The notes: generated by a model from the sequence alone, not told the origin. DNA of 64,000 nt from Bacilli bacterium (GCA_017962745.1 JAGCUR010000013.1:1046-65045); one strand, 5' to 3'. Positions 4,719 through 28,921 are shown, counted from the first letter of the stretch. Made by a program: numbers and translations.

Positions 4719-4776
4719 AATCTAACACCTACTAATAATAAACTGCCTAGTTGCGCTAGGCAGTTTATAATTTTAA

Positions 4777-7029
4777 TTATTCTTCTGAGCCTTCATCACT
4801 TGGTGATAATAATTGTCCACCAGTTAATGCAACCATCTTAGCAACGCCTAATGTGTAAGCATCGCAATCAATTGTTAAGGCTTTATCCATCTTACCACGA
4901 GGTTTTAACTTGTAAGCTGTCATTGATTTATCTACACCTTTAACTTTTTCTTTGATTGCAGCTAAATCAACTGTAGCGCCTTCTTCAAATGCTTCACATA
5001 ATTGATCTGTGAATACTTCACCGAAGTTAGTCTTGTCAATTTCTCTATCTGAATGACCAACTAAGTTAAGTGCATCATTGTCATCCATATATTTGTTAAT
5101 GTTATAAACAGAAGTTTCTTTTAATAACTTGTATTGACGAGCTCTAGCTTTAGGTTTTTCGCCTCTTTCAACACTCATCTTAATTTGACCTTTAGCAATT
5201 AAAGTCTTTTCAGAATCGCCTCTGAACTCAGCTAATTCATCAATTGGTTCGTATTCTTTTTTCTTTTCAGCTTTAATATCTTTTAATAAGTCTTTTAAGA
5301 TGTTAAGAGCGTATTTAGTTCTTCTCATACTCTTAATCTTCATTACTGCGAAACCATCTTTATCAGGTTGTAATGGAGTCTTAGGATCGCTAGCGTATTT
5401 TTCAACATCAACTGTTAGATATAAGTTAAGTGTTTTACCACGAACCATTAATCTAGCAAATGTTTCTCTACTCTTTGCGAATGTTTCATGTTTCCATGAT
5501 ACTCTATTAGTAATTTGATATGAGCATAATAAGTCTTTAATTAATTGATAGCATTGTTGCATGCTTTCATCTAATGCTACTAATTTAGCAATGTGAGATT
5601 TATTGTAGTTGATTGATAAGTATTCATCTTTTTCTTCTACAACTTCTTCTTCAGCAGCGGCAGCAGCAGCAACGATTGGAACAACAACTGGTTCAACTTC
5701 TGGAGCAGCTTCTTCTTCAGGTGCTTCTTCAGCTTCTTCTGGAGCAGCTTCTTCTTCAGGTGCTTCTTCAGCAGCTGGTTCTTCAGCTACAGGTTCTTCT
5801 TCAGCAGGTGCTTCTTCCTCAGCTGGAGCTTCTTCTTCGTTAGCTTGTTCTTGTTCTTCTTCTGGAGCAGCTTCTTCTTCAGGTTCTTCTTCAGCAGGTT
5901 CTTCTTCTTTATCGTTCTTATCTCTCTTGAAGAAAATATAGATAACTAATAAGATGATGATGATTACTAATAAGATGATGATAACGATGAACATCCAGAT
6001 AGGACCTGAACTTCCACGTTCACCTTTTTCACCTTGATCACCTTTGTCACCTTTTTCGCCTTGTTGACCTTGTTGGCCTTGAGAACCTTCTGGACCTTGA
6101 GGACCTTGAGGGCCTTGAGGACCTACAGCACCTGGATCACCTTGTTGACCAGCAGCAGAGATACCTGTATCTGCGCCATTGATTACCCAGTTACCAGTAG
6201 TAGGATCAATTTCAATAGTTGGTGTATCACCAGCTTGACCTGGTTCACCTTGAGCAGCGATTCCAGTGTCTACGCCATCAATTTGCCAGTTACCATTATC
6301 ACCAATAGTGATTAGAGGACTATGTCCATCTTCACCAGCAGGACCTTGGATTGCAGTAGGAACTGCATTTTCATCAGGTTGTAAGAATGCAACTGGACAT
6401 AAGTGACTGAATTCAACTTCTAATTTTCCGTTTTCATCATCGTATGCAACTTTATCAGAATCAACAACTGTCCATTCTTTAGTTGCTTCATTTTGGTGAA
6501 TAACGACTGGTGATTTACCATTAGAAGATTGATAATCAAATTCGAATTTAATAGTTCCGCCAGCAGCGAATACTGCAGCGATTTCATCAGTTACTGATAA
6601 ATCGAATACTTGTTCAGCATCGAAGTCTTCAGATTTGTACATTTTACCATCAACTAATAAATTAGCTAATGCAGATTGAAGGGCTTCTTGACTTTCTTTT
6701 TGATCGCCTTCCAATGCAGCACCACTGAATATTTCACGTAAAGCTTGTGTTGCTTCGCTTAAAGCTTGAACTTTTTCAGGGTCTCCACCTTCTCCATCTA
6801 TTGGAGTGATAGTAACCTTTGATAAGTCAACACTAGTTTCAGATCCATCAGCATTAATCACAGTTGCAGTTGCTACTTCTGGAGTCTCAGCTGCGAATGG
6901 GCTACCAGCAGGGCTGCCAGTAGGACTTGCAGTAGGACTTGGTTCAGCAAATGCAACAGGGATACTAACTAATACTAATAACATTGCTACTATTACAACA
7001 AATAGCATTTTGAAATTAAATTTTCTCAT
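4777..7029 (-). CDS. type-I membrane protein with collagen-like (Gly-X-Y) ectodomain, acidic E/P/A-rich cytoplasmic linker and unknown C-terminal domain
   Basis: 750 aa. Signal peptide MRKFNFKMLFVVIVAMLLVLVSIPVAFA. GXY run GPQGPQGPQGPEGSQGQQGQQGEKGDKGDQGEKGERG. Twice-repeated motif GNW[QV]I[DN]G[VA]DTGI. Single TM IWMFIVIIILLVIIIILLVIYIFF. Then (EEAPE)n low complexity and a roughly 330-aa C-terminal domain. Confidence 0.8.
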   Translation of the reverse strand: MRKFNFKMLFVVIVAMLLVLVSIPVAFAEPSPTASPTGSPAGSPFAAETPEVATATVINADGSETSVDLSKVTITPIDGEGGDPEKVQALSEATQALREIFSGAALEGDQKESQEALQSALANLLVDGKMYKSEDFDAEQVFDLSVTDEIAAVFAAGGTIKFEFDYQSSNGKSPVVIHQNEATKEWTVVDSDKVAYDDENGKLEVEFSHLCPVAFLQPDENAVPTAIQGPAGEDGHSPLITIGDNGNWQIDGVDTGIAAQGEPGQAGDTPTIEIDPTTGNWVINGADTGISAAGQQGDPGAVGPQGPQGPQGPEGSQGQQGQQGEKGDKGDQGEKGERGSSGPIWMFIVIIILLVIIIILLVIYIFFKRDKNDKEEEPAEEEPEEEAAPEEEQEQANEEEAPAEEEAPAEEEPVAEEPAAEEAPEEEAAPEEAEEAPEEEAAPEVEPVVVPIVAAAAAAEEEVVEEKDEYLSINYNKSHIAKLVALDESMQQCYQLIKDLLCSYQITNRVSWKHETFAKSRETFARLMVRGKTLNLYLTVDVEKYASDPKTPLQPDKDGFAVMKIKSMRRTKYALNILKDLLKDIKAEKKKEYEPIDELAEFRGDSEKTLIAKGQIKMSVERGEKPKARARQYKLLKETSVYNINKYMDDNDALNLVGHSDREIDKTNFGEVFTDQLCEAFEEGATVDLAAIKEKVKGVDKSMTAYKLKPRGKMDKALTIDCDAYTLGVAKMVALTGGQLLSPSDEGSEE

Positions 7030-7192
7030 ATTCTTCTCCTTGTTTTTAAAAAAGTCTAATGCGTTTTATTACTCTCATAACAAAAATAGACACTTCTTTT
7101 CCTTATTTTACTGCCGATTTGTTTTTTTTTCAACATTTTGTTATTTTTTCATAATTAGTGAAAACACTTTCATTAAATTTTTTTATAATTTT

Positions 7193-7238
7193 TATAAAAA
7201 TAGCGCTTATCTAGTTAGCTAAACTAACTAAAAAGCGC
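7193..7238 (-). terminator. rho-independent terminator downstream of leuS
   Basis: Nested inverted repeats AGCGCTT...AAGCGC and TAGTTAG...CTAACTA, followed by a T-run on the minus strand. Confidence 0.5.
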
Positions 7239-7248
7239 AAATTTTCTT

Positions 7249-9666
7249 TTAAATTACAATACTTACTAACTTATTAGGTACTACAATTACTTTCTTAACT
7301 GGGTTATCACCCACATATTGTTTTACCTTTTCGTTAGCTAAAGCGATTCGTTCTAACTCTTCATTAGGTAGTCCTTTAGTAACTTCTACTTTATCTCTAA
7401 GTTTACCATTTACTTGGAAGACAACAGTTACTGTATCTTCATGAGTCTTAGCTTCTTCAAATGTTGGCCACTCTTCGTAGACGATACAGCCAGCTTCTGG
7501 TTTAAGCATACTATATAACTCTTCAGTAATATGTGGACAAATTGGATTTAGTAGTTTTAAGAAGCCTAAAGCATATTCAAGTGGTAAGTTAGGATCTTTG
7601 AAGCATTCATTCATGAATACCATCATTTGACTAATAGCCGTATTAAATCTTAAAGCAGTATAGTCTTCAGTAACTTTCTTAACTGTTTGATGATATAATC
7701 TTTCAAAGTTTTTATTCTCAGGAACGATATGTAACATCTCAGTATAGAATCTATAAACTCTATCTAAGAATCTATGTGGTCCTTCTACACCTTTAGTTGA
7801 CCATGGCTTAGTTGCTTCTAGTGGACCCATAAACATTTCATAAAGACGAAGTGTATCAGCACCATAATCCCTAACAACATCATCAGGATTAATGACATTG
7901 CCTCTACTCTTACTCATCTTTTCACCATCTACACCTAGAATCATTCCTTGGTTAAATAGTTTATGGAATGGTTCTTTACTATCTACAACTCCACAATCAT
8001 ATAATACTTTATGCCAGAATCTTGCATATAGTAAGTGAAGCACAGCGTGTTCAGTTCCACCAATATATAAATCAACTGGTAACCATTTATTTACTTCTTT
8101 TTGAACTTCTTTATCACTTAATGGTAAGAAATCATCACCATCTTTTAGTAAGTAACCAATATAGTACCAACAAGATCCAGCCCATTGAGGCATTGTATTT
8201 GTTTCTCTTCGGCCTTTAACACCATCACTTCTAACTACTTCTAGCCATTCATGCGCATTAGCTAGTGGGCTTTCACCATTATGAGATAGAGTAACTCGCT
8301 TCATTACTGGTAGTTCAAGTGGTAAATCTTTTTCTTCTAGGACACTAACTTTACCATCTTCCCAGAAGATTACTGGGAATGGTTCACCCCAATATCTTTG
8401 ACGGCTAAAGATCCAATCTCTTAGCCTGTAATTTACATCTTTATAACCGATACCTTTTTCACTTAAGAAAGCGATCATTTTATCAATTGCATCTTGCTTA
8501 TTTAAACCATTTAAGAATTCAGAATTGATATGGATACCATCTCCAGTGTAAGCACCACTTGTCATATCGCCTTCAAGGACTTGGATGATATCGATATTAT
8601 ATTTCTTAGCAAAATCATAATCTCTTTCATCATGAGCAGGAACTGCCATGATAGCACCAGTTCCATAACTAGAAAGTACATAATCAGCTATCCAAATTGG
8701 TAACTTCTTACCATTAGCTGGATTAATGGCATATGCTCCTGTAAAGCAGCCGGTTTTTTCTTTATTTAAATCAGTTCTTTCTAGATCACTTTTAGCTTTC
8801 GCAAAATCAACGTAAGCTTGTACATCTTTTAAGTGGCTAGCTGGTGTAATCTTCTTAACAAGTTTATGTTCAGGAGATAATACACAATATGTAGCACCAA
8901 ATAAAGTATCAGCTCTAGTAGTAAATACTTCAAATGTTTCATTAGTGCCATCAACTTTAAATGTGATCTTAGCACCAACTGATTTACCAATCCAGTTCTT
9001 CTGCATTTCTTTTACGTTATCTGGCCAATCAAGTAAATCAAGATCTTCTAATAATCTTTCTGCGTAAGCAGTAATCTTTAAAACCCATTGCTTCATTGGT
9101 TTTTTAACAACTGGGTAGCTACCTCTTTCACTTACCATCTTACCATTATCGTTTAATACTTCTTCGTTTGCTAAAACGGTACCTAATTCTTCACACCAGT
9201 TAACTTCAATATTTTTAACTTCAGCTAATCCTTTTTCATAAAGTTTAGTAAAAATCCATTGTGTCCATTTAAAATATTTAGGATCACAAGTGGCAAGTTC
9301 TTTACTCCAGTCAAAAGATAAACCTAACATTTGTAATTGGTTTTTAAATATTTCAATATTGCGATATGTGAAATCAGCTGGTGAATTACCAGTGTTAATA
9401 GCATATTGTTCAGCAGGCAATCCGAATGCATCAAATCCCATTGGATGAAATACTGCATATCCTTGCATTCTTTTCATTCTTGAAACGATGTCAGTAGCAG
9501 TGTAGCCTTCAGGATGACCGACATGTAAACCTGCTCCACTAGGATATGGGAACATATCTAGTGCATAAAACTTTTCTTTATTTGTTACAAGTGGTTGTTT
9601 AAAGACCTCATTTTCAGCCCAATACTTTTGCCACTTCTTTTCGATTTGTGTAAAATTATAACTCAT
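7249..9666 (-). CDS. leuS: leucine--tRNA ligase
   Basis: 805 aa. Class-I HIGH motif HVGHPEGY and KMSKS motif. Overall LeuRS architecture. Confidence 0.95.
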
Positions 9667-15829: not shown

Positions 15830-16675
15830 TTATTCTTTTACGATATATAAAATACCAATAGTTCTTGGTCCACAATGAGCAGCGATAACGCTACTTGCAT
15901 TCGTTTCTACAAGATTATCAATTTGGACATCACGTTTCTTTAATTCATCCATTAGATAAATAGCATCTTCATGTGTATCAGGATGTGTAACAAATACGAA
16001 ATCAGGATCGATATTATTAATATCCGCATCAAACATTTCTAATTGTAGATCTAATGCTTTCTTAAAATTACCGATTGGCTTTTTAGCAACTACCATTTTA
16101 CCATCAACTACTTTTACGATTGGTTTAATCTTAAGTAGTGTACCAAATAATCTAGCAGTTCCTGAACATCTTCCACCTTTATGTAAGTAATCAAGCGTAT
16201 CAATCGCAAACTGCGTTCTAACTCTTGGTTTAATCTTTTCGATTTCCGCTACGATTTCTGGAGCACTCATTCCAAGGTCACGAAATTTAGCAGCTTTTAA
16301 TAAAAGTAAGCCAATACCTGTAGATAAGTTAGCACTATCAATTGGATAGAAGTTAGGACATTCTTCACTAGCAATTCTAGCGTTATTAAATGTACCTGAA
16401 ATTCCACCACTTATACCCATATAGATGACATCTTCATCTTCTGGATATTCTTTCACTAAATCAACAAAGAATGCTGGTGGTACACTAGCAGTGTGTGGCA
16501 TTTGGCCTGTCTCATCAATTAGTTTAAATAACATCTTAGTATCGATGTCAACGCCACCTTTGTATGATTTTTCCCCAATGTTAATAATTAATGGGAATTC
16601 TCTAATACCATACTTCTCTTTTAATTCAGGTGTTAAGTCAGATGTGCAATCTGTAATTATATTTACTTTTCTCAT
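15830..16675 (-). CDS. DegV family fatty-acid-binding protein
   Basis: 281 aa. The DegV N-terminal pattern MRKVNIITDCTSDL matches over full length. Confidence 0.85.
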   Translation of the reverse strand: MRKVNIITDCTSDLTPELKEKYGIREFPLIINIGEKSYKGGVDIDTKMLFKLIDETGQMPHTASVPPAFFVDLVKEYPEDEDVIYMGISGGISGTFNNARIASEECPNFYPIDSANLSTGIGLLLLKAAKFRDLGMSAPEIVAEIEKIKPRVRTQFAIDTLDYLHKGGRCSGTARLFGTLLKIKPIVKVVDGKMVVAKKPIGNFKKALDLQLEMFDADINNIDPDFVFVTHPDTHEDAIYLMDELKKRDVQIDNLVETNASSVIAAHCGPRTIGILYIVKE

Positions 16676-16737
16676 AATTTACCTCTCGCTAGTTTAATTA
16701 TATATTCTTTACTACGTTTAAACAATGTTTTTGTTTA

Positions 16738-18600
16738 CTACTTGTTTTTCGCATCCCACTTTTTACGTTCAACAGTATCTAAGATTCGCTTTCTTAATCT
16801 AACGCTTCTTGGTGTTATTTCAACAAGTTCATCATCGTTAATATAATCTAAGCATGCTTCTAGACTCATACGACGTGGTTTCTTTAAAACAACAGTAACT
16901 TCTTTATTTGATTCACGCATGTTTGTTAAATTCTTTTGTTTAGCAACATTAACGCTCATATCTTCTTCACGGTTACATTCACCAACGATTTGGCCTTCAT
17001 ATACTTCTTCATGTGGTTCAATAAATAATACGCCTCTGTCTTCAATATTACCAATACCATATGCATTACTAGTTCCGGTAAAGGCAGCAACTAGTACTCC
17101 CCACTTACGATTACCTAAAGTCGCATTTGCATCCATTGGACGGTAGTCTAAAAATGAATGTGATAAAGTTCCATAACCTTTTGTGGCAGTAAGGAAAGAT
17201 GTTGATAAGCCAATTAGTCCGCGGGAAGGGATTGTATAGATGATTCTAGTTTGGCTACCATCAGCACTCATATCTTCAAAGATACCACCACGGTTTCCAA
17301 ATAAGCTAATAACATCTCCTGCTGATTCATTTGGTACATCGATTTGCGCAAATTCGTAAGGTTCGCAAACGACCCCATCGATTTCTTTTAAAATCGGTTT
17401 TGGTCTTGATACTTGGAATTCATATCCTTCGCGACGCATATTTTCGATTAATATACCAAGATGTAATTCTCCTCTTCCGCAGACGATCCATTCATCACTA
17501 GTACCAATTCTTTTTACTCTTAAGCTAACATCCTTTTGAGTTTCTTTAAATAATCTATCATCAATTTTAGTACTAGTAACAAACTTGCCTTCTTTACCCG
17601 CAAATGGTGAAGTATTAGTACCAAAGATCATTTCGATAGTTGGTTCACTAACATGGATTGGTGGTAGGGCTTCTTCAGCGCCAACATCGCACACAGTTTC
17701 CCCTACATATATGTCACCAAGCCCAGCTATCGCTACGATATCACCTGCATAAGCGACTTCTGTTTCAATTTTATTTAAACCTAAAAATGTAAAGATCTTT
17801 TGAATTCTAAATTGCTTAATTGATCCATCCATTCGCATACAACTTGCCATTTGGTTAACGCGCATTACTCCGCGTTGAATCCTTCCAATTGCCATTCTAC
17901 CAACGTAGTCATTATAATCAAGTAATGATCCTTGGAATTGTAAGCTACCATCTTTGTTTACTGCTTTATGCGTTTTATCAGGAGCCGGAATTTCACTAAC
18001 AATTAAATCAAATAAAGGATCCATTGTCTCCTCTTGGGTTTCTAAGTCACTTGACAAGCTACACGTTCCTTTTAAAGCACTAACATATGCAACTTTAAAA
18101 TCAATTTGTTCATCTGTGGCACCTAACTCAATAAATAAGTCGATTACTTCATCTACAACCTCTTCGCATCTAGCCGAATCTTTGTCAACTTTATTGATAA
18201 CTACAATTGGCTTTAAGCCATATTCTAAAGCTTTCTTTAAAACAAATCGTGTTTGTGGCATTGTACCTTCATAGGCATCTACTACAAGTAATACACCATC
18301 AACCATTGTCATGATTCTTTCAACTTCGCCTGAAAAATCTGCATGGCCTGGTGTATCCAAAATATTAATTTTATAATTCTTATAATATATAGCAGTATTC
18401 TTAGCTAGAATAGTAATTCCTCTTTCACGTTCCAAATCATTAGAATCAAGTGCTCTTTCTTCAATTTGTTCTCTAGCTTGAAGAGTTGCACTCTTTTTTA
18501 ATAACTGGTCAACAAGAGTAGTTTTACCATGGTCAACATGTGCAATAATAGCTATATTTCTAATTTCCATATTTTCCATATATTCACTCTTTCTAGTCAA
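16738..18600 (-). CDS. typA: translational GTPase TypA/BipA
   Basis: IRNIAIIAHVDHGKTTLVD, DTPGHADF, NKVD motifs. The true start is probably at MENMEIRN, about 18576-18579, rather than the longest ORF. Confidence 0.9.
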   Translation of the reverse strand: MTRKSEYMENMEIRNIAIIAHVDHGKTTLVDQLLKKSATLQAREQIEERALDSNDLERERGITILAKNTAIYYKNYKINILDTPGHADFSGEVERIMTMVDGVLLVVDAYEGTMPQTRFVLKKALEYGLKPIVVINKVDKDSARCEEVVDEVIDLFIELGATDEQIDFKVAYVSALKGTCSLSSDLETQEETMDPLFDLIVSEIPAPDKTHKAVNKDGSLQFQGSLLDYNDYVGRMAIGRIQRGVMRVNQMASCMRMDGSIKQFRIQKIFTFLGLNKIETEVAYAGDIVAIAGLGDIYVGETVCDVGAEEALPPIHVSEPTIEMIFGTNTSPFAGKEGKFVTSTKIDDRLFKETQKDVSLRVKRIGTSDEWIVCGRGELHLGILIENMRREGYEFQVSRPKPILKEIDGVVCEPYEFAQIDVPNESAGDVISLFGNRGGIFEDMSADGSQTRIIYTIPSRGLIGLSTSFLTATKGYGTLSHSFLDYRPMDANATLGNRKWGVLVAAFTGTSNAYGIGNIEDRGVLFIEPHEEVYEGQIVGECNREEDMSVNVAKQKNLTNMRESNKEVTVVLKKPRRMSLEACLDYINDDELVEITPRSVRLRKRILDTVERKKWDAKNK

Positions 18601-20116
18601 AATTGATATGAATCATTTTTAGTTCATCATAAAAGTTCTTTTCGTGTGATACTAAAATAACAGTTCCGGGATAAGTTGCTATCTTTTCAAATAAAGATTT
18701 TTTAGCTAACTTATCAAGATGGTTAGTAGGCTCATCCAAGATTAGCAAATTAGATTTAGTTAAAGATAATTTAGCAAATCTAACTTTAGCAGCCTCGCCT
18801 CCGCTTAAATACTTCATACTCTTTAAAGGTAATTCTCCACTTACTCCATAACGAGCGAGGATTCCACGAATCTCTTTATCATCCAGCTGTGGATAATCAT
18901 TTCTAAAGTATTGCATAGCAGTAATATCTTCGGGTTCTTCTTCTTGAGCATAATAATAAATTGTATTTAAATCAGTTAAATCAAAGTTTCCTTTAATTGG
19001 TGCTAGCTTTCCTAAAATAGTTTTTACGAAAGTCGTCTTACCAATACCATTTTTCCCAATGATTACATACTTTTTACCAAATTCTAGTTTTAAGTTAATA
19101 TGTTCTAAAATTGGATGCGTATAACCAATACTTAAATCATTAACAACTAATGGTGATTTATGAAATGATTTTGTAAATTCAAAATTAAAGTGTACTGGCT
19201 TTTCGCTAACTGGCTTTTCCATTACTTCCAACCTATCAAGTATCTTTTGTCTACTTTGCGCACGGTGCGTAGTAGATGCTCTAACTAAGTTTTTATTAAT
19301 GAAGTCTTGTTGATGCTTGATATAAGCTTGTTGACGATTATATGCTTTCTCATAAGCGATACGATTTACTTCGTGTTGCTTTAAGTAAGCATCATAATTA
19401 CCTTTATAACGAGCAAGCAGTTTGTTTTCTAAAACCAATGTCACATCGCATACATTATTTAAAAAATCTACATTATGGCTAATTACAATAAAACTATTCT
19501 TATAGCCTGTTAAAAACTTAGTTAACCATTCTACGTGTCTAGCATCTAAAAAGTTAGTAGGTTCATCTAGTAACAATACATCTTTTTCTTCAAGTAACAT
19601 CTTACCTAAAAATACTTTAGCTCTTTGTCCACCTGATAATTCTTTTAAGCTTCTACCTTCTTCTATATCAATACCTAAACCGTTTATTACATTACCAATT
19701 TTAGATTTAATCATATAAAAGTTGTTTTCATCTAAAAAAGTTTGAATGTTTTCCGCTTTTCTTAAAATCTTATCATAATCATCAGGATTAGCATCAACTA
19801 AACTGTTATATAAATTATTCATCTCCTCTTCTTTTTTAAATAATGGTGTATAAACGTCATATAAATAGTCAGTTATTGAAATATCAGTTTTAACTTCAAG
19901 TTGTTGATCCAAATACGAAAATGTTACATTCTTATCCCAAATGATTTTACCTTCATCTGGAGTTAGGCGAAAGGCAAGTAAATTCATTAATGTAGATTTA
20001 CCAACACCATTTAGCCCAATCAAGCCAACATGTTCGCCATTATATATAGTTACTGATGCTTTATTAAAAAGTTCTTGTGCACCATAACCAAATTTTAAGT
20101 CGATAATCTCTAACAT
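18593..20116 (-). CDS. ABC-F family ATPase (tandem NBDs, no TMD)
   Basis: 507 aa. Two Walker A motifs (GLNGVGKST, GKNGIGKTT) and two LSGG signatures. No membrane domain. Confidence 0.85.
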   Translation of the reverse strand: MLEIIDLKFGYGAQELFNKASVTIYNGEHVGLIGLNGVGKSTLMNLLAFRLTPDEGKIIWDKNVTFSYLDQQLEVKTDISITDYLYDVYTPLFKKEEEMNNLYNSLVDANPDDYDKILRKAENIQTFLDENNFYMIKSKIGNVINGLGIDIEEGRSLKELSGGQRAKVFLGKMLLEEKDVLLLDEPTNFLDARHVEWLTKFLTGYKNSFIVISHNVDFLNNVCDVTLVLENKLLARYKGNYDAYLKQHEVNRIAYEKAYNRQQAYIKHQQDFINKNLVRASTTHRAQSRQKILDRLEVMEKPVSEKPVHFNFEFTKSFHKSPLVVNDLSIGYTHPILEHINLKLEFGKKYVIIGKNGIGKTTFVKTILGKLAPIKGNFDLTDLNTIYYYAQEEEPEDITAMQYFRNDYPQLDDKEIRGILARYGVSGELPLKSMKYLSGGEAAKVRFAKLSLTKSNLLILDEPTNHLDKLAKKSLFEKIATYPGTVILVSHEKNFYDELKMIHINFD

Positions 20117-20376: not shown

Positions 20377-21525
20377 TTATTGTAAAAACTCATATATAAA
20401 GAATCTATGGCTATCAATGTCTACCGTTAGAACTAGATATTCATCATATTTGAAGTAATCTATTTCGTTTTCTTTCAATCCTTCAATAGAATATACAAAA
20501 CAATAATCTATTTCCTCGTTGCTAATCGTTAGAGCAACATCGTATGGAAAATCGCTTGGATTACATTTTATAAAATCATTATTATTTTTAAGTTCATTAA
20601 ACTTTATAGCAAATTCATCTTCATTTGTTGTTGTAACAACAATTTCTCTAGTTGATTTGACAACTCTGCTTTCAATAATTGCATTTTTTGGTAATTGATA
20701 ACTTATTTTACTTTCAATATTCTTGATGATATCTGAATCGTAAGTAACAGGTGATACCCTTTGAAGGACTACGGAAAATGTGAACGCTAATAAAGCAAAC
20801 GATATTACTAATATTGATGTAATAAAAAACTTCTTCGCTTGTAGTAACAATCTCTTCCAAAATGCAGCAAAACATAACAAAAACATTGCTGGGATCATAC
20901 TTAATATGAATATCCACGATAAACTCATTACTTTGTCAACATACCAATAATAATCATTAGCTATTATTTTTGTTATCAAAAGACCAATAGGAAATACGTT
21001 CAAAGTGGTAATAAACAATAAATCCGTTATGGATGATGTATACACAATCTTTCTATCACTAATTTTACATCTACTCATATGCACATCATTGATACCTTGT
21101 TTACAATGCATGCTTAAGTAATCAATATATTCCTTTCGTTTATAAATTTTTACGTCATACATCTTTTCATTTGCGATGATATTACAATCAAAATATCCTC
21201 GAGAATTTAATGTATACATATACTTTTTTATGTCTGAAAGTTTAATAATATCGTTTTTTATACCTCTTAATATGTATAGCTTTTCATCTGTTCCAATCAC
21301 TTTATACTGAGTTTCGAATAGCACTATGAAATATATGATGGATAAAAAAAGCACAAAAATAATTGGTATTATGCGAACAAAAAAGTTTACTTTTCTATCC
21401 ATCAGCCAACTCGTCAACATTGACACAGCGAAAATAATTGATGGTAAAAAAATAGCAACCGCAGTAGCATTTTTGTTATAATCCACAAAAGAATAAATAC
21501 TTGAATCTTTGCTTTTATTAACCAT
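20377..21525 (-). CDS. polytopic membrane protein, candidate immunity protein for the orphan Rhs toxin cassette
   Basis: About 382 aa from the ATG at 21523-21525 (AGGTG RBS). The track ORF starts at an upstream GTG. Several TM helices. It overlaps the 3' end of the orphan CT by 8 nt. Confidence 0.6.
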   Translation of the reverse strand: MVNKSKDSSIYSFVDYNKNATAVAIFLPSIIFAVSMLTSWLMDRKVNFFVRIIPIIFVLFLSIIYFIVLFETQYKVIGTDEKLYILRGIKNDIIKLSDIKKYMYTLNSRGYFDCNIIANEKMYDVKIYKRKEYIDYLSMHCKQGINDVHMSRCKISDRKIVYTSSITDLLFITTLNVFPIGLLITKIIANDYYWYVDKVMSLSWIFILSMIPAMFLLCFAAFWKRLLLQAKKFFITSILVISFALLAFTFSVVLQRVSPVTYDSDIIKNIESKISYQLPKNAIIESRVVKSTREIVVTTTNEDEFAIKFNELKNNNDFIKCNPSDFPYDVALTISNEEIDYCFVYSIEGLKENEIDYFKYDEYLVLTVDIDSHRFFIYEFLQ

Positions 21526-22381
21526 AGTATGCACCTAACAAATTATCATTATCGAATTCTTTAACACAGCAGTATCTACCGCCTCCGCAAAAGCAACTAA
21601 CGAGTACAGTTCCTGCAACACCAACAATAATAGCACCGGTGGCTTGCTTTCCCTCAATCGCCATTGTTGAGTAAATTCCATCTGAAGAATACCCAGATTT
21701 AAAACCCATTGTTCCATCTTTTGATATTGTGACACCATATACAACACCATTTTTTAATATAACATCGATTCCAGCTGTTTTTTTTGATTGATAAAGTTCA
21801 ATTTTTACAGAATCACCGATTGGAAATCCAGAGCCAAAATAGGTTGTATCATTTCCCCGATCAACAAATGAATATCGTCCACCGTAGTTTTCGTGACTTT
21901 CTCCAACTGTGAAGGTGATGTTAACTATAGTATTACCAAACAGTTCATTACTGATCAAAGAATGTGTATAATGTGTCCTATCTGATACGTTTATTACCAC
22001 GTGACAACTAAGTAACAAGCCACCATTTTGCTGAAATGCGCTTGTCATTTTTTTATTAGAGGATAATAAAAATATACCAGTTGTTCTTCTCGTTATAGTC
22101 ACACTTGAATTTTCATAAACCAAAAGTATAGGATTATTTAAACAATACGCATATAGATTTAATCCACCAGCTACATTAGCATTTAAGTAATCCACACTAT
22201 CATACGATATAAATCTACCCCAATTAGGATTATAATATCTAGTTTTTAAATAATATAAATTATTTTCATAATCTATATAATATGATTTATAAATAATATG
22301 ATTAATATTACTTAAATCAACGCCTGGTAAATGACTTACATCAATTATATTACCATATGCATCATAAGTATATTCTAACAC
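21518..22381 (-). CDS. orphan Rhs C-terminal toxin cassette (5'-truncated, no ATG; about 80 aa of conserved Rhs core end plus about 207-aa novel CT)
   Basis: First about 80 aa (VLEYTYDAYGNIID...RYYNPNWGRFISYDSVDYL...NLYAYCLN) are near-identical to residues of the large Rhs protein. The apparent start is GTG, which equals the Val of the parent sequence. Divergent tail with a C-terminal Gly/Cys-rich hydrophobic segment. Confidence 0.7.
   Translation of the reverse strand: MLEYTYDAYGNIIDVSHLPGVDLSNINHIIYKSYYIDYENNLYYLKTRYYNPNWGRFISYDSVDYLNANVAGGLNLYAYCLNNPILLVYENSSVTITRRTTGIFLLSSNKKMTSAFQQNGGLLLSCHVVINVSDRTHYTHSLISNELFGNTIVNITFTVGESHENYGGRYSFVDRGNDTTYFGSGFPIGDSVKIELYQSKKTAGIDVILKNGVVYGVTISKDGTMGFKSGYSSDGIYSTMAIEGKQATGAIIVGVAGTVLVSCFCGGGRYCCVKEFDNDNLLGAYYG
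22142..22381. repeat. about 240-bp direct repeat (copy 2) of the rhs core-end region, about 90% identical to 23841-24080
   Basis: Judged by direct DNA comparison of the two segments. Confidence 0.8.
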
Positions 22382-22437
22382 AATCTTTTTATATTTTTAA
22401 GATTTTGGCTTCATATTATTTGCAATTAAACATTGCA

Positions 22438-23310
22438 TTAATTGCGATTTGAAATATACTCATATCTTTCATCAGAAAAGACACTTTTATTAAAATAAAC
22501 AAATTGTATACTATTATTTTCTAAATCGTATTCATATACTATATCAGAAGTAAAAATGTTATTCAGGCCAAGCCGATAAATAAGTAAAATATGACCATAA
22601 GAAATATATATTTTACATGGCTTATATTCAACTTTTGACATATCTTCGCGGTATTGAGAGTTTTCAAAATAGTCATTATTAATGATAGTAACTTCGTCTG
22701 TCAAAAGATCTTTTATTTCAAAAGATTTTCTATCATCGGTAATTTTTACATCAATATTATATTTCTTTTTTTGCTCCTCATATCTAATATCTTCTAGATT
22801 GACGTTTTCGCCTTTTGAATAATTGTAATATCTTTTTTCTATCACATCATATACATCAATAATATTTGATTCATCTTTAGTACTATATAAAATATAAAAA
22901 CAATTATCAAAAGTCATATACTTTGGGTTCTTTTTTATTGATTCAGTGGTGTATAACTGATTTACTACATTATCAAGCATATTCATCGAATAAAAAGTTA
23001 TTTTTACATTTGACAAACCGCGCTCATATAAATAGAATACTTCATTTGATGTAAGAATTATTTGATTATTGTCATAAATCTTGTTTATAGCAAAAATTGA
23101 TTTTTCATATTCTCTATATTCAACAGAAGCACTTGTTATATCAGCTATATTTTCGTTATTTTCGTATTTTTCGAATATTTTTTCAATTTTGTCTTCAGTT
23201 CGATATCTTTTTTCATCTCTTATATATAGCCATAGTTCAAAAATTACAAATAGGATGCTTACTACTATTATTGGGAAAATTATAAAGTAAATCTTTTTCT
23301 TAATTGCCAT
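22438..23310 (-). CDS. candidate immunity protein for the main Rhs toxin (N-terminal TM anchor)
   Basis: 290 aa. AGGAGGG RBS. ATG overlaps the rhs 3' end by 31 nt. N-terminal TM FIIFPIIVVSILFVIFELWLY. I recognise no family. Confidence 0.6.
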   Translation of the reverse strand: MAIKKKIYFIIFPIIVVSILFVIFELWLYIRDEKRYRTEDKIEKIFEKYENNENIADITSASVEYREYEKSIFAINKIYDNNQIILTSNEVFYLYERGLSNVKITFYSMNMLDNVVNQLYTTESIKKNPKYMTFDNCFYILYSTKDESNIIDVYDVIEKRYYNYSKGENVNLEDIRYEEQKKKYNIDVKITDDRKSFEIKDLLTDEVTIINNDYFENSQYREDMSKVEYKPCKIYISYGHILLIYRLGLNNIFTSDIVYEYDLENNSIQFVYFNKSVFSDERYEYISNRN

Positions 23311-26300
23311 GGGTACCCTCCTATAAAATTGTAAAAATCTTGGGTTGCAGCAAAAGGATTAAAGTTCCAATAAAGAAGTTGCATACCAGCCGAACACACT
23401 ATTTCATCTATCTCTGTTCTCCCGATAATATCGTTATAAATTGTATGCCCCACATCCAAATCTTTAAATCGTGGATTTTTGGTCAAAGCGTATGCGATAT
23501 TATGACAAAGCCACTCAAACTCGACACCTATAGACGAGCCATCAATAATATCTCTCGTTTTTTCTTTAAAATAATTCAAATATATGCTGTATCCATATTT
23601 TATCCATGGGGTATGTATTTTTGACGAATCTTTCAAAGTCACATTACCATCTTTTACTATGATGTCGTCTTCTTCATTTATATTGCCCATAGCAATAATA
23701 TCCGATGTTGTTGATGCAACAGCGCCTATCATAGTGGCAATAGGATCTGCTAGTACTGCACCAATATACATAACGATCGTCCAAAATTTTCCCCAATCAA
23801 ATGTCCCTTCTGGATCGCAGCCATTTACAGGATCATTCAAGCAATATGCGTATAAATTTAATCCACTAGCTATATTAGCATTTAAGTAATCTACACTATC
23901 ATATGATATAAACCTACCCCAATTAGGATTATAATATCTAGTTTTTAAATAATATAAATTATTTTCATAATCTATATAATACGATTTATAAATAATATGG
24001 TTAATATTACTTAAATTAACGCCTGGTAAATGATTTACATCAATAATATTCCCATATGCATCATAAGTATATTCTAAAACAATATTACCAATGCTGTTAG
24101 AAATGTATTTAATTACTCCTAATATATCTTTAATATAGCAATATGTACTACCATTATATATAAAGCCATATACATTATTATCTTTATCATATAAATACTT
24201 AACAATATAAAAACTATTATTATTTAAATTTGTTATCTTTTCCCCAACTAAATTACCTTTAATATCATAAACATATTTAAATGATTTGTCATCAGTTACT
24301 TTTTTAATTCTTCTGCCTAAATGATCATAATCATAACTAATAGTACCATAGCTCTTTAGTTTCATCCCTTCCCAAGTTAAATTGGTATTGTTGATTGTTG
24401 ATGGGAGGGAATTGGTATAAGAATCATATGTGATGATTTCAATATCATTATTATTTTCATCTGTTATTCTAGTTAATGCATTTTTGTTTAGATTATCTTC
24501 ATATTTGTAATTTCGTGTATTAACAACAACATCGTTTACTTTAATCTCTCTTTTTAAAATGTTACCACTATTATCATATGTATATACTCTTTCTTGAGCA
24601 GAGTTTTGTTCTAAATTCTTGTCATGTGTTAAGTAACCTAATGCATTATATTCATATTGTTTAATAATATTATTATTTCTTTTGATCTTTTTTATTCGAT
24701 TCATTGAATCATATATGTATTCTAATGTCATATTATTATTTAAGTAAGATATGATTTCATTTTCAACTTTTGATGTTCCATTATAATCATATGCATATGA
24801 TGTCTTTTTGTAATTATATGTATTACATATAATTAGATTATCATCATGTATTATATTTCTTTTTGATAATCTATTTAGGCTATCATATTTATTTTCTAAT
24901 AATGAATGATTTAAGAACATCATATCGTTTTGTAAAGAACTGATACTTTTATATGTTCTATCGATGCATAGCATCTCAATAAAACCATCTAATGGCTCAC
25001 TTAAATCATTGGTATTACCTAACTGTAATTTTAAATAATTACTATCCAGATTTATACTTAATGCATAGTCGTCTATATAATTATTATTAAGTACAACTCT
25101 ATAATTAAATGTACCATTATTATAATAATACGAAAAAGCTAATGTATTTACATCATTATTAATAACTAAACTATTGCTAATTAAATTATTATTTAAATAT
25201 AGTTTATTATTAATTATTGATAATTTAATAGCTTGATTATCTGCAAATAATCTAAATAATGTTTTTGATTCAGCTTCATTAATATTATTCTCGTTTATTG
25301 TAAACCTTAATAAAATTGTACCTGAATTCGTTAAGCCTGTCTGATAAATTACTTTATTTTTATTTACGTATAGATTACATCTATGCGACTTTTTATTATA
25401 AATAAAGGAATTATCAATAAGTTCGTTATTATCTTTAGTTACATCAATTAAATCCACTTGCAAAGTATGCATATTTGGTAAAGTTTTAAAATCATTAAAT
25501 AATGGTAAAACTTTATAATTATCTAATAGCGATTGATTGAACAATGTAGTTGAAGTAAAGCCTGTGAATGTATAATTACCATCATATTCAATATTACCAA
25601 ATACATAGTTTAGACCAAAATATGATAATTCATATACGCCATTAAAGTTAATCCCTCTATGTGCAATAATCCCATATACATATAAATTAGCACCATAAGT
25701 TTGATTATCGGAAGTGCATCCAATTGAAAGTTTTTTAAATGTTACATTACTAACACTACAATTATAATCTTTATTGTTAATGAGTAAATGCAATGTATTA
25801 CTATCAAGCACTAAAGATATCGCATATATTTTATTAGTATCTAATTCAATATATTCATTGATTAACTGATTATTACCATAATTGCAACTTATATAATGAG
25901 TACTAGAATTATAAGTTACATATAGATTAATATCACTTGAACTTTTGAAAGATGCAATTATGCCTCCTGCTTTAATTTTTGAAAAGACTGTAACGCCATT
26001 AATTTGTTTATTTGTAATATCGTAAGTTAATCTAGTTTGCGTGCTTATAAGTTTTATTATTGAAACGCAGTGCTCACTAACAATTAAAGGGTTAACATTT
26101 GATGTAATAACATCTTCATCTATTCCCCCGTTATCGCCTTTATAAACTAAATTACTACTTTCTAAATCAAAAAAACACGAATAATTAGCATTATGATCAT
26201 TTGATCTTGCTAGCCTTATCTTTTCATAATAATGCTCAGGTGCAAATACATTGCTTTCTTTAGAATCAGTAAATGCTTGAAACGTCTCATTACTATCGTT

Positions 26301-28817
26301 AAATATCAAATTATATAATCTAATAATACTATTTGTATTATCACGAAGCATATTTGATACAATTTCGTTACTTTCAATTTCGCACAAATTATCTTCTTCA
26401 TCATATGCTAAATTAATGGTAGAATCATTTGTATTATTATGGATTTCTTTTAATCTATTATATGCATCATATAGAAAACTAAATTTACTAATATCTGTAC
26501 TAGTACCATGATCTCTATATTTTACTGTCGATAAATTATATTTGTTATCATAATCAAAAATGTATTTATCCCCATTATCACCATACTCTTTTGATTTAAT
26601 TAAAGATAGATGGGGAAGAGATGATGAATCTTCATTTACATATTTAATATTTATTAAACTTTTATATATAATCTGATAGGTATCATCATATATTAATCTT
26701 ACACTTGATAATCGATTATCATTATTATAAACGCTTTGTACCTCATTATCGCGTCTGTCAGTTAAAACATCAACTGCTAAATTAGATCCATAACTTATTA
26801 AATTTTGATCTTTAAGTACATCGTTGTCATCTTTGATGACTACGCTATTTAATAAATTCTTTTGATTATATGAATAAAAATATTGGCTACCATCTGGTAA
26901 TACCTTTCTTTCCACTAAATAATGTTTTGTCCCATTACTTTCATATTCTATTTGATAATCTTCTACTTTTTCTCTAGAAATGAATTCCCCATTTGATTCA
27001 TATTCATATTCTTTTCTTAGATATATTTTTCTATCTTTGAAAACAGATGCATCATACTCATGACTAGTTAATACTTCGTTTGTAACTTCGTTATAATTAT
27101 TGTATTGGTAATTTGTTTTATTGCCAAATAGCCCTGCTTGTTCTTCTATTAAATCATCACTCACTAAGTTATTATCTCTAGTAGCAATATAGTTATAATC
27201 ATAATGCGTTATATTATATTTTCCAAATGCACTAATTACTTTATTGTTTTCATTTATTAAATATTTAGTTTCGTTTTTACCAACTAATATATTCGTAATA
27301 TTATTGTTATTATCATAAGTATATGCAAAACCTGCTATTTGTTTAGTTAAACATATTGAATCAAATGTGTATGTGGCTCCACTTCCTTTTATAAAGAATA
27401 ATACTTTGATTTTGTCAAAACCAACTTCTGGATTAATCTCAAAAAAGAATAATTCTTTATAATCCGTGTTACTTGGCAACGCCTTAGAATAAGTTATCCA
27501 CTCATTGTTACCTTTTAATAATGATATTTTAACTGTCGCGCTAGTTCCTTCTACTTCACATTTAGTTAAACATCTAAATACATAAGTATCTAAAGGCGTA
27601 CCGCTAACATTAATTATTTGATATGTACTGCTTACAAAAGGTATGGAATTGTTTTGTATTTTTAATAGTTTTGAAGATGTTACATATTCATTATTGTAAT
27701 AATAATTAGCATCAGCATTATTTATATATGATACATTAGCATTATCAGACTGCCAAGATGGTGTACTTCCTTGGCAAAAACCATCACTTATTAAATTATT
27801 AATTTCTGTTTGATGTAAATAATTATTTTTAAAAGCATTTGATTTAAAAATAATATTTTTGCGTGAATCAAATCTTTGCCCTGCTATATATTTATTTGTA
27901 TCAATTATATGATTAATTAAATAATTATCATCAAAATAATAATGAGTATGCATATTATTATAACTAACAACTGTGTGATAATTATTTATTAAATTAATAG
28001 AGGTTACATCAAAAGTATTATCATTAGTGCCTCTACCTTCATATACTGTATATGTACCATTTGTTGGGTGTTCTACTAATATTCTTTCTTTTGTGATTGT
28101 ATTGTACATTTGATAAACCGGATCGAATGATAATTGTATATTATTAACTAGATTATTTGTTCCATTATTAATAATATAATAATTAATATTGTTTATATAA
28201 TTTGAAGAAAAAGTAATTATAACTTTGCGTACGTTTACATAATCTTTTCTAATTGTTGCTTCGAGTGCCCCATAAATCATTGGCATAAAATCTATTGCTT
28301 CACCATAATTATTATAAATAGATTCTATGTAGTCTTCATCATAACTGAAATGGATTTTATTAATTGTATTATTTCTATCTTCAATTAATATTAATTTGTA
28401 TGAAGAATCAAATGTATATACACTATCAATATAGACAATCTTTTTTTGATTGTTCTCTATTACCATATATGAAGCAAGGTCAATATTTTCATATCTATTA
28501 TTTTGATTGATGTAATCTTCTGTTGACATATCAGCGTTTGTAACTACATATTTATCATTTTGACTATCGTATGATAATTCTTTCATAATAGACAGTTTAC
28601 AACCAGTTTTAAAATTACAATCAACTTCATTGCTTGAGGAAGTATATATTAAAGATAAATTTATTGGAGATAATTTATAAGGGGAATTATAAAGGGGAAT
28701 TATAAAATGAAGATTATCAAAGTTTTTTGATAAATTAATATACGTGTTAGATCCATCGCTTATAGATGCATTGAAATATGTTCCATATGATTTGATACCT
28801 TGATTAGCCATAATCAT
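23280..28817 (-). CDS. Rhs / YD-repeat polymorphic toxin (1845 aa)
   Basis: Many YD-type repeats (YDxxGN..., YxYDxxGR...). Rhs core end RYYNPNWGRFISYDSV...NLYAYCLNDPVNGCDPEGT. A variable CT of about 175 aa follows. AGGAGT RBS. No signal peptide. Confidence 0.9.
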   Translation of the reverse strand: MIMANQGIKSYGTYFNASISDGSNTYINLSKNFDNLHFIIPLYNSPYKLSPINLSLIYTSSSNEVDCNFKTGCKLSIMKELSYDSQNDKYVVTNADMSTEDYINQNNRYENIDLASYMVIENNQKKIVYIDSVYTFDSSYKLILIEDRNNTINKIHFSYDEDYIESIYNNYGEAIDFMPMIYGALEATIRKDYVNVRKVIITFSSNYINNINYYIINNGTNNLVNNIQLSFDPVYQMYNTITKERILVEHPTNGTYTVYEGRGTNDNTFDVTSINLINNYHTVVSYNNMHTHYYFDDNYLINHIIDTNKYIAGQRFDSRKNIIFKSNAFKNNYLHQTEINNLISDGFCQGSTPSWQSDNANVSYINNADANYYYNNEYVTSSKLLKIQNNSIPFVSSTYQIINVSGTPLDTYVFRCLTKCEVEGTSATVKISLLKGNNEWITYSKALPSNTDYKELFFFEINPEVGFDKIKVLFFIKGSGATYTFDSICLTKQIAGFAYTYDNNNNITNILVGKNETKYLINENNKVISAFGKYNITHYDYNYIATRDNNLVSDDLIEEQAGLFGNKTNYQYNNYNEVTNEVLTSHEYDASVFKDRKIYLRKEYEYESNGEFISREKVEDYQIEYESNGTKHYLVERKVLPDGSQYFYSYNQKNLLNSVVIKDDNDVLKDQNLISYGSNLAVDVLTDRRDNEVQSVYNNDNRLSSVRLIYDDTYQIIYKSLINIKYVNEDSSSLPHLSLIKSKEYGDNGDKYIFDYDNKYNLSTVKYRDHGTSTDISKFSFLYDAYNRLKEIHNNTNDSTINLAYDEEDNLCEIESNEIVSNMLRDNTNSIIRLYNLIFNDSNETFQAFTDSKESNVFAPEHYYEKIRLARSNDHNANYSCFFDLESSNLVYKGDNGGIDEDVITSNVNPLIVSEHCVSIIKLISTQTRLTYDITNKQINGVTVFSKIKAGGIIASFKSSSDINLYVTYNSSTHYISCNYGNNQLINEYIELDTNKIYAISLVLDSNTLHLLINNKDYNCSVSNVTFKKLSIGCTSDNQTYGANLYVYGIIAHRGINFNGVYELSYFGLNYVFGNIEYDGNYTFTGFTSTTLFNQSLLDNYKVLPLFNDFKTLPNMHTLQVDLIDVTKDNNELIDNSFIYNKKSHRCNLYVNKNKVIYQTGLTNSGTILLRFTINENNINEAESKTLFRLFADNQAIKLSIINNKLYLNNNLISNSLVINNDVNTLAFSYYYNNGTFNYRVVLNNNYIDDYALSINLDSNYLKLQLGNTNDLSEPLDGFIEMLCIDRTYKSISSLQNDMMFLNHSLLENKYDSLNRLSKRNIIHDDNLIICNTYNYKKTSYAYDYNGTSKVENEIISYLNNNMTLEYIYDSMNRIKKIKRNNNIIKQYEYNALGYLTHDKNLEQNSAQERVYTYDNSGNILKREIKVNDVVVNTRNYKYEDNLNKNALTRITDENNNDIEIITYDSYTNSLPSTINNTNLTWEGMKLKSYGTISYDYDHLGRRIKKVTDDKSFKYVYDIKGNLVGEKITNLNNNSFYIVKYLYDKDNNVYGFIYNGSTYCYIKDILGVIKYISNSIGNIVLEYTYDAYGNIIDVNHLPGVNLSNINHIIYKSYYIDYENNLYYLKTRYYNPNWGRFISYDSVDYLNANIASGLNLYAYCLNDPVNGCDPEGTFDWGKFWTIVMYIGAVLADPIATMIGAVASTTSDIIAMGNINEEDDIIVKDGNVTLKDSSKIHTPWIKYGYSIYLNYFKEKTRDIIDGSSIGVEFEWLCHNIAYALTKNPRFKDLDVGHTIYNDIIGRTEIDEIVCSAGMQLLYWNFNPFAATQDFYNFIGGYPWQLRKRFTL
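23841..24080. repeat. about 240-bp direct repeat (copy 1) inside the rhs gene, homologous to 22142-22381
   Basis: Judged by direct DNA comparison. Encodes VLEYTYD...AYCLN. Confidence 0.8.
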
Positions 28818-28921
28818 TTACTCCTTTTTCTTTATAATAAAATTATACATTTATAATATTGCATATGTAAACATTATAAAAGAAAAACAATGACTATAGT
28901 TAGCCATTGTCTTTCTTTTTA

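Follow-up and report, generated by a model that had tools for sequence, protein, structure and literature searches.

A twice-present Rhs core end in a Bacilli bacterium, better read as a probable scar of tip displacement than as a dedicated switching site

Introduction

The locus considered here raises the question of why the 3' end of an rhs gene is present twice within a single gene cluster, and whether this repeat serves to exchange one toxin tip for another. It lies in a stretch of 64,000 nt (hereafter, the window) from a metagenome-assembled genome (MAG) of a "Bacilli bacterium" (GCA_017962745.1, JAGCUR010000013.1:1046-65045). Four genes follow one another on the minus strand: a full-length rhs gene ending in a variable C-terminal tip (CT1), imm1 (290 aa), an "orphan" rhs fragment ending in an unrelated tip (CT2), and imm2 (382 aa). 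From their positions and co-conservation, CT1/imm1 and CT2/imm2 are taken as putative toxin/immunity pairs. An earlier, sequence-only reading had interpreted the repeat as a recombination site for CT switching. It is more plausibly a scar left when an imported cassette displaced the C terminus, as suggested by the synonymous divergence (dS) of 0.35 between the copies, a ratio of nonsynonymous to synonymous divergence (dN/dS) of 0.06 and the homology of the cassette; the layout probably arose when an incoming unit of core end, CT1 and imm1 displaced an older CT2 tip from the C terminus.

The Repeat and the Genes That Carry It

A repeat search between 14 and 32 kb of the window identified a direct repeat of 261 nt at 92% identity (241 of 261 positions) with a spacing of 1,699 bp, in which the longest exact run comprises 68 nt and the second longest 26 nt. 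The repeat lies far above chance, since the runner-up direct repeats of this interval measure merely 30-44 nt at 65-80% identity. The similarity starts a few bases upstream of the first orphan codon and covers the last 82 codons of the Rhs-associated core, with 17 nt differences in 246 nt and 78 of 82 amino acids identical; the common peptide extends from VLEYTYDAYGN (quoted start VLEYTYDAYGNIID) through NLYAYCLN. By sequence comparison, the repeat is the 3' end of the Rhs-associated core, i.e., the plug/autoprotease domain preceding the variable toxin tip, present twice. The genes and segments concerned are the following:

23280..28817, minus strand: full-length rhs, 1845 aa (open reading frame (ORF); TIGR03696; PDB sequence matches; Shine-Dalgarno AAAGGAG, -8.4 kcal/mol)
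23826..24086, minus strand: repeat copy in the main gene, end of the Rhs-associated core (...VLEYTYDAYGN...NLYAYCLNDPV; alignment)
23802..23816, minus strand: second DPxG motif (DPEGT), canonical C-terminal autocleavage site, main gene only (family alignment, profile coverage, role in the literature)
23283..23834, minus strand: CT1, 184-aa variable tip opening with a hydrophobic stretch (comparison with relatives)
22438..23310, minus strand: imm1, 290 aa, N-terminal transmembrane (TM) segment, putative CT1 immunity (start overlaps the rhs stop; strong Shine-Dalgarno)
22382..22437, minus strand: 56-nt spacer from the imm1 stop to the orphan (in-frame TAA at 22397-22399; no Shine-Dalgarno)
22127..22387, minus strand: repeat copy heading the orphan (alignment)
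21518..22381, minus strand: orphan rhs-CT, an ORF of 287 codons opening with GTG and made up of 82 core-end codons and CT2 (ORF; TIGR03696)
21521..22135, minus strand: CT2, 205-aa tip without second DPxG (rare family; AlphaFold2 (AF2) model)
20377..21525, minus strand: imm2, 382 aa from the ATG at 21525, multiple TM segments, putative CT2 immunity (intact in all deletion haplotypes)

The sequence-only reading had described 22142-22381 and 23841-24080 as about 90% identical, encoding about 80 aa of the Rhs core end; a gap-free alignment at these coordinates confirmed the similarity, and both copies match TIGR03696. The peptide that it had quoted was correct, as were the continuations DPVNGCDPEGT in the main gene and NPILLVYE in the orphan. 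The abrupt end of identity that it had placed at CLN needs a small correction for the DNA, in which similarity fades over another 3-4 codons (NNPI versus NDPV) up to 22127/23826.

The naming of the gene as rhs has also stood. TIGR03696 (Rhs_assc_core; cutoff 32.5 bits) matches residues 1585-1671 of the main protein with 63.8 bits (profile positions 1-75 of 76) and the orphan with 58.3 bits (positions 1-69 only), and the core end matches PDB sequences of solved Rhs structures and teneurin-like proteins (8h8a, E 2.6e-26; 7q97). The Pfam family PF05593 (RHS_repeat) scores 20.6 bits on the main protein, just below its cutoff of 22; precomputed PF05593 matches exist for the relatives P0002-P0005, and phmmer gives multiple weak YD-repeat matches to 8h8a. 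On the TIGR03696 and structure-sequence matches, the main gene is an Rhs gene. Its product is identical to P0001 (MBP5551177.1, the 1843-aa NCBI protein starting at the alternative codon at 28811). The border between core and tip reads NDPVNGCDPEGT, which contains a demarcation motif of the PxxxxDPxGL type, and the sequence around the second motif is ...NLYAYCLNDPVNGCDPEGT; D1668, P1669 and G1671 are invariant in an alignment of five family proteins.

Origin of the Repeat

Over the 82 shared codons, the copies show a dN of 0.020, a dS of 0.35 and a dN/dS of 0.057 (Nei-Gojobori), with only 4 of the 17 nucleotide differences being nonsynonymous. Such values suggest that the copies diverged mostly as parts of functional rhs genes under purifying selection. 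A dS of 0.35 therefore speaks against both a recent duplication in place and homogenization by recent gene conversion. Import of one of the copies as part of a cassette would lead to divergence of this kind.

Comparison with relatives points to such a cassette. Four homologues of the main protein (P0002-P0005) are 42-54% identical to it, and sliding-window identity reveals a mosaic: over the first 450 residues P0002 and P0003 go together, in the middle part the window protein pairs with P0002, and at the tip it pairs with P0003 (76-85% identity). At the nucleotide level, window positions 24488-22438 match positions 14354-16419 of contig L006, which carries the P0003 locus, with 83.4% identity over 2,072 nt. 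The match terminates exactly at the imm1 stop codon and upstream nearly nothing aligns; outside the cassette, the two Rhs bodies are about 48% identical (ranging from about 20 to 60% along this remainder of the proteins). Since the match is embedded in divergent Rhs bodies, core end, CT1 and imm1 appear to have been exchanged as a unit between divergent rhs lineages:

22438..24488, minus strand: exchanged cassette of ~2.05 kb, last ~220 core codons plus CT1 plus imm1 (nucleotide match to L006)

Downstream of CT1-imm1, L006 carries a CT1-like fragment, a TM-rich ORF, a CT2-tail-like remnant of 40-55 aa and an imm2-like gene (26% identity), a stack whose sequence fits sequential C-terminal displacement of older tips. 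Its stretch from 16420 to 19485 comprises about 1 kb of broken ORFs, a CT1-like fragment of 97 aa, a 234-aa TM protein, the CT2-like tail remnant and the imm2-like gene. An unrelated contig, L008, exhibits at least three consecutive orphans of the same design.

In the proposed model, a foreign cassette consisting of the last ~220 core codons, CT1 and imm1 would have entered a resident rhs gene by homologous recombination in the conserved core, followed by illegitimate joining at its 3' side. The former tip would thereby have been pushed downstream as an orphan retaining the last 82 core codons, CT2 and imm2, and imm2 would have remained useful as an immunity gene. We infer which way the displacement went, that the orphan is silent, and that the tips and their partner genes serve as toxins and immunity factors.

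Several observations weigh against parts of this model. Of the 20 sites that differ between the repeat copies, L006 agrees with the orphan at 13 and with the main copy at 4, while L002 agrees with the orphan at 6 and with the main copy at 8; these signals are mixed, also as to which repeat copy is native, and the direction is not proven by them. The orphan is fully open for 287 codons in AT-rich DNA, carries a GTG at the first homologous codon and ends in an overlap with the imm2 start. Translation of the orphan is therefore possible, and its GTG may act as a weak start. The toxin and immunity roles of CT1, CT2, imm1 and imm2 are predicted only.

Expression Signals of the Orphan

The orphan is annotated by NCBI and ENA as a 287-aa gene (MBP5551175.1). 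It has no ATG, as the sequence-only reading had stated; its first homologous codon is a GTG (GTT in the main gene), and an in-frame TAA is located 15 nt upstream. No promoter-like or terminator-like site was found in the 56-nt spacer among those listed, and promoter-like matches occur region-wide at chance level (97 found versus 87.6 expected in this AT-rich DNA). Start strength was assessed as pairing energy with the anti-Shine-Dalgarno sequence, with 40 long ORFs of the window (median -7.2 kcal/mol) and random positions (median -1.1 kcal/mol) as references. The imm1 ATG (AGGAGGG) reaches -10.7, the rhs ATG -8.4 and the imm2 ATG at 21525, which overlaps the CT2 stop codon (ATGGTTAA), -3.7 kcal/mol; the orphan GTG yields -1.1 kcal/mol. 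The absent ribosome-binding site strengthens the earlier claim, and because both an ATG and a ribosome-binding site are missing, the orphan is probably made poorly or not at all.

A shared beginning of orphans across genomes (M/V-x-x-Y-x-YDAWGN) was considered as a selected start and rejected as an effect of gene calling. In L008, the homology extends ~7 codons further upstream, a "TTGACA" found there is core coding sequence (V-D), and a 1-nt indel creates an in-frame stop codon. Positions 3800-7700 of this contig, which stems from another genome, hold an array of three orphan tips with near-identical core-end starts. Each of them is preceded by a G+C-rich hairpin with a T-run, resembling a terminator, and by a 1-nt indel that leads to an in-frame TGA just upstream.

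The CT2 Tip and Its Missing Cleavage Motif

Where the main gene has its second DPxG motif, the sequence of the orphan is CLNNPILLVYENSS, and its junction sequence ...NLYAYCLNNPILLVYENSS contains no DPxG, in line with a profile match that stops at position 69 of 76. In Photorhabdus Rhs1 (D1338N; PMC8636562) and P. protegens RhsA (D1346N; PMC8765631), autocleavage of the C terminus depends on the Asp of this motif, and so do toxicity and competition. In teneurins, the plug is not cleaved (discussed in PMC8765631). The possibility that YENSS in the orphan represents a decayed DPxGT was considered and set aside: recent decay is not clear, and P0029 shows a similar IFENAS after a junction that likewise has no DPxG.

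A word-based homologue search with CT2 alone found nothing. An exhaustive HMMER and profile search identified a CT2 family comprising P0028/P0030, P0029/P0031/P0034, P0032 and P0033, attached to Rhs core ends; two further candidates, P0025 and P0027, were disregarded as repetitive and of low complexity. The other lineages are ~22-32% identical to CT2 and likewise show no DPxG after NNP[VIM]: the motif is absent from P0029, P0031, P0032 and P0033, and P0030 alone keeps DPNGT. P0033 (locus L011) seems to run upstream into the Rhs core at a contig edge. A full-length Rhs relative from Tenericutes with an unrelated tip, P0011, is also devoid of a second DPxG. Searches of genome contigs with the Rhs-family and CT2-family profiles, and of metagenome contigs with CT2 and the Rhs family, gave pattern matches, none of which was confirmed by tblastn. 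On this sequence record, CT2 is a real tip family on Rhs core ends and not junk.

The AF2 model of CT2, with a predicted local distance difference test (pLDDT) score of 71, shows nine antiparallel strands in a beta meander followed by a C-terminal hydrophobic helix; a Foldseek comparison of this model with the PDB gave no significant match. Small proteins with two TM segments are encoded downstream of CT2-family tips in L008, L009, L011 and L016, and their profile matches the N-terminal part of imm2 weakly (36% probability, E 3.9e-4). In L009 (10001-11494), a Clostridia-like contig, a lone, frameshifted CT2-family orphan and a small immunity gene are situated between spo0A and polA, with no rhs within 10 kb upstream. 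It is decidedly unlikely, in our estimation, that CT2-type tips form a distinct Rhs tip class, defined by the beta meander and the C-terminal membrane helix, that works without the canonical second DPxG site. Were this the case, such tips would either stay on the shell and be displayed in a teneurin-like manner or be made as stand-alone proteins of core end and CT2, and the wide retention of imm2 after loss of rhs would reflect continuing attack by CT2-type toxins in the gut population.

A Deletion Haplotype in Related Strains

Related strains carry a natural deletion of 7,147 bp, bounded by two ATGGC pentamers, in which rhs, CT1, imm1 and the greater part of the orphan are lost:

28807..28811, minus strand: upstream deletion endpoint, ATGGC microhomology, rhs codons 3-4 (L014 and other deletion contigs)
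21660..21664, minus strand: downstream deletion endpoint, ATGGC, about CT2 codon 158 of 205 (L014 and other deletion contigs)
28842..28871, minus strand: promoter-like TTTACA-18-TATAAT upstream of rhs, the best of the region (consensus match only; kept in the deletion haplotype)

The deletion was first seen in L014, a contig of 830 bp that is 97% identical to the window and holds the end of the major facilitator superfamily (MFS) transporter gene, the promoter-like site and Shine-Dalgarno sequence of rhs, ATGATTATGGC fused in frame to about CT2 codon 158, and imm2. The fusion thus joins rhs codons 1-4 to the last ~46 CT2 codons, followed by imm2. Six more contigs from different samples (L017-L022; up to 29 kb) show the order MFS, 48-aa ORF, imm2, ABC-F and BipA. 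As the junction is identical in at least seven contigs from seven samples (L014, L017-L022), a single deletion event can be concluded. The 90% cluster of the orphan contains two 287-aa alleles (6 contigs) and six deletion alleles of 48-50 aa; together with P0026, the deletion alleles account for at least 12 contigs versus 6 for the full orphan. The rearrangement seen in related strains is therefore a microhomology deletion and not a tip-swapping crossover.

When the window is compared with the deletion haplotypes, the MFS and ABC-F genes on the flanks show a dS of 0.18-0.21 and a dN/dS of 0.05-0.07, whereas imm2 shows a dS of 0.03-0.04 and a dN/dS of 0.48-0.59, its protein sequence thus changing fast. 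From its lower dS, the imm2 region has a more recent shared ancestor than the backbones around it, and it seems to have moved between diverged strains. The ratios are consistent with relaxed or diversifying selection on an imm2 that stays intact, which suggests that immunity to CT2-type toxins would be worth keeping. Two samples (ERZ27297857, SRR12710963) hold both the P0003 rhs locus, which occupies another chromosomal site (L006/L007), and the imm2-only haplotype (L017/L022); a single strain may thus have rhs at that other site and here no more than the immunity relic.

Alternative Explanations

The sequence-only reading had proposed that recombination between the copies swaps tip and immunity gene and that the orphan is a silent cassette. 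A crossover within the repeat is possible: it would delete the 1,699 bp of CT1 tip and imm1 and, with the orphan intact, in the same orientation and in frame, yield an rhs-CT2 fusion. At 261 bp, 92% and an exact block of 68 nt, the repeat is a plausible RecA substrate, if a weaker one than the 522 bp at 95% by which main and orphan genes recombine in Salmonella Typhimurium LT2 (PMC3967940), and the population-wide retention of imm2 suggests that CT2-type toxins are a live threat. A silent cassette likewise agrees with an orphan that is 5'-truncated, ends in a tip unlike that of the main gene, is followed by a putative immunity gene of its own and has no normal start signals. On the other side, the chimera would be without the canonical release site wherever the crossover falls, because the CT2 side has no second DPxG, on which the Rhs proteins studied so far depend to release their toxin. 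The crossover would also remove imm1, and the cell would therefore become sensitive to its siblings, a problem noted for Salmonella, in which a duplication precedes recombination and keeps the main immunity gene (PMC3967940). The dS of 0.35 reflects an old synonymous divergence with no recent conversion or exchange between the copies, and the natural rearrangement uses a 5-nt microhomology elsewhere. No rhs-CT2 chimera was found among 24 homologues of the main protein in a collection of 5.8 billion proteins, nor in its 90% cluster, with only about 6 contigs carrying the full island. The missing motif, the loss of imm1, the old divergence, the absence of chimeras and the different deletion make switching at best a rare side effect and not an evident function of the repeat. 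It is therefore considered unlikely that a silent orphan cassette is actively deployed by RecA-mediated crossover, possibly after duplication of the locus, to change the toxin in use.

Should the orphan instead be expressed independently, from its GTG or otherwise, it might form a toxin-antitoxin (TA)-like pair with imm2 inside the producer or act as a membrane protein. Orphan Rhs-CTs of Salmonella are known to use internal promoters and a CTG start and to act as type II TA modules (PMC7043789). The position of the GTG exactly at the first homologous codon, the 287 open codons, the annotation by gene callers, the conservation of the CT2-family beta domain in distant short ORFs without cleavage motif, and the overlap of CT2 stop and imm2 start, which suggests translational coupling, all agree with such a role. 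Yet the orphan has no Shine-Dalgarno sequence, which the genes of this genome usually possess, its spacer holds no promoter-like site in a region where such matches occur at chance level, and the deletion haplotypes dispense with all but its last 46 codons, making independent expression very unlikely. Tandem duplication of the rhs 3' end in place, recent and followed by divergence of the tips, would account for two direct copies that lie in tandem at a distance of 1.7 kb; it is extremely improbable given tips (CT1/CT2) and immunity genes (imm1/imm2) without detectable similarity, a dS of 0.35 under strong purifying selection and a CT1-imm1 cassette common to a divergent rhs lineage. That assembly fused the tips of two strains comes to mind for any MAG, and deserves next to no credence here: the gene order is identical in three assemblies, and the repeat is therefore not an assembly artefact; in addition, at 68 nt even the longest exact block falls below the k-mer that the contig names indicate for the assembler (k141), and the adjacency of CT2 tail and imm2 is confirmed in independent samples. 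Displacement of CT2 by an imported cassette is accordingly the reading adopted here.

Further Features of the Locus

The four-gene block is flanked by the MFS transporter gene and the ABC-F gene amid housekeeping genes, and its G+C content of 23-29% is below the 30-36% of the flanks. None of the products of CT1, CT2, imm1 and imm2 matches a Pfam or NCBIfam family. CT1, which shares 77% identity with the P0003 tip and 46% with the P0004 tip, also gave no match in the PDB, including a profile search of PDB sequences, and its AF2 model was unusable (pLDDT 39). The imm1 protein is 86% identical to the product of the gene downstream of the CT1-like tip in L006/L007. A hydrophobic, helix-like stretch of 20-40 residues directly after DPxG opens the tips of the main protein (23700-23800) and of P0002-P0006; the motif takes the form DP[ED]G[TM] in P0001-P0005, and the CT2 orphan has no clear equivalent.

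The N-terminal part of the main Rhs protein contains no Pfam or NCBIfam domain and no signal-like hydrophobic stretch in residues 1-60. Its first ~120 residues (28400-28817) are among the best-conserved of the family, at 64-78% identity, and hold neither a signal peptide nor a PAAR, LXG or further known domain for export. No recognizable secretion domain of T6SS (type VI secretion system), PAAR, VgrG or other kind was found, and none of the neighboring genes examined is a secretion gene. Elsewhere in the window, positions 4777-7029 encode a 750-aa protein with a match to the collagen triple-helix repeat (PF01391). The minus strand carries all 40 ORFs of at least 250 aa in the window (1-64000), and GC skew stays negative over the entire stretch, which lies on one replichore with extreme gene-strand bias.

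Comparison With Known Systems

Judged by its sequence, the layout is a real and typical case of the known orphan rhs-CT/rhsI arrangement. For Enterobacteria, orphan modules and their origin by C-terminal displacement are described in Poole et al. (2011; PMC3150448), which cites Jackson et al. (2009). Both there and here, an rhs gene of full length and its immunity gene are followed in the same orientation by a 5'-truncated rhs fragment with the common core 3' end, an unrelated tip, its own immunity gene and no normal initiation signals, and tip-immunity cassettes are exchanged between divergent rhs genes. The present case differs in its host, an uncultured, low-GC Bacilli MAG in which no T6SS, PAAR, VgrG or other secretion domain was found, and in two tips from uncharacterized families. 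In addition, the orphan keeps 82 core codons only, its homology ending before DPxG, whereas typical orphans of Enterobacteria retain the DPxGL demarcation motif.

With Salmonella LT2 (Koskiniemi et al., 2014), the locus shares a direct repeat of the core end and the predicted consequence of a crossover, in which the orphan tip would be joined to the delivery part and the main immunity gene lost. However, the repeat is half as long and more diverged than that of LT2, no recombinant is seen, the predicted chimera has no cleavage motif, and the natural variant is a microhomology deletion. Orphan Rhs toxins whose expression is internal (Starsta et al., 2020; PMC7043789) resemble the present orphan in a candidate non-ATG start and an adjacent immunity gene, while no recognizable internal promoter or ribosome-binding site is present here. 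The teneurin YD shells (PMC8765631), which are eukaryotic, share a core end without the second catalytic DPxG and have an uncleaved plug, a likeness of one motif at the sequence level. In the T6SS of Vibrio cholerae (PMC5361080), effectors are reported to be displaced one after another, and arrays of immunity genes from earlier pairs stay in place downstream when a new effector-immunity pair comes in. The deletion haplotype is similar in that an immunity gene is kept after the loss of its toxin; effector family and delivery system are different ones.

What is new relative to these systems is the host lineage, an Rhs clade without recognizable export domain, two uncharacterized families of tips, an orphan in which homology breaks off ahead of the cleavage motif, and an immunity-only deletion haplotype at the population level. 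The latter provides a natural snapshot in which the toxin machinery has been lost by one microhomology deletion, while the immunity gene of the old orphan is kept behind the rhs promoter and is common to strains with diverged backbones. A tip family that is mostly devoid of the canonical autocleavage motif further bears on the question of whether simple recombination can always reuse orphan tips. The pattern of orphan tips and displacement, known mainly from T6SS-linked rhs loci of Gram-negative bacteria, is thereby extended to uncultured, low-GC gut Bacilli.

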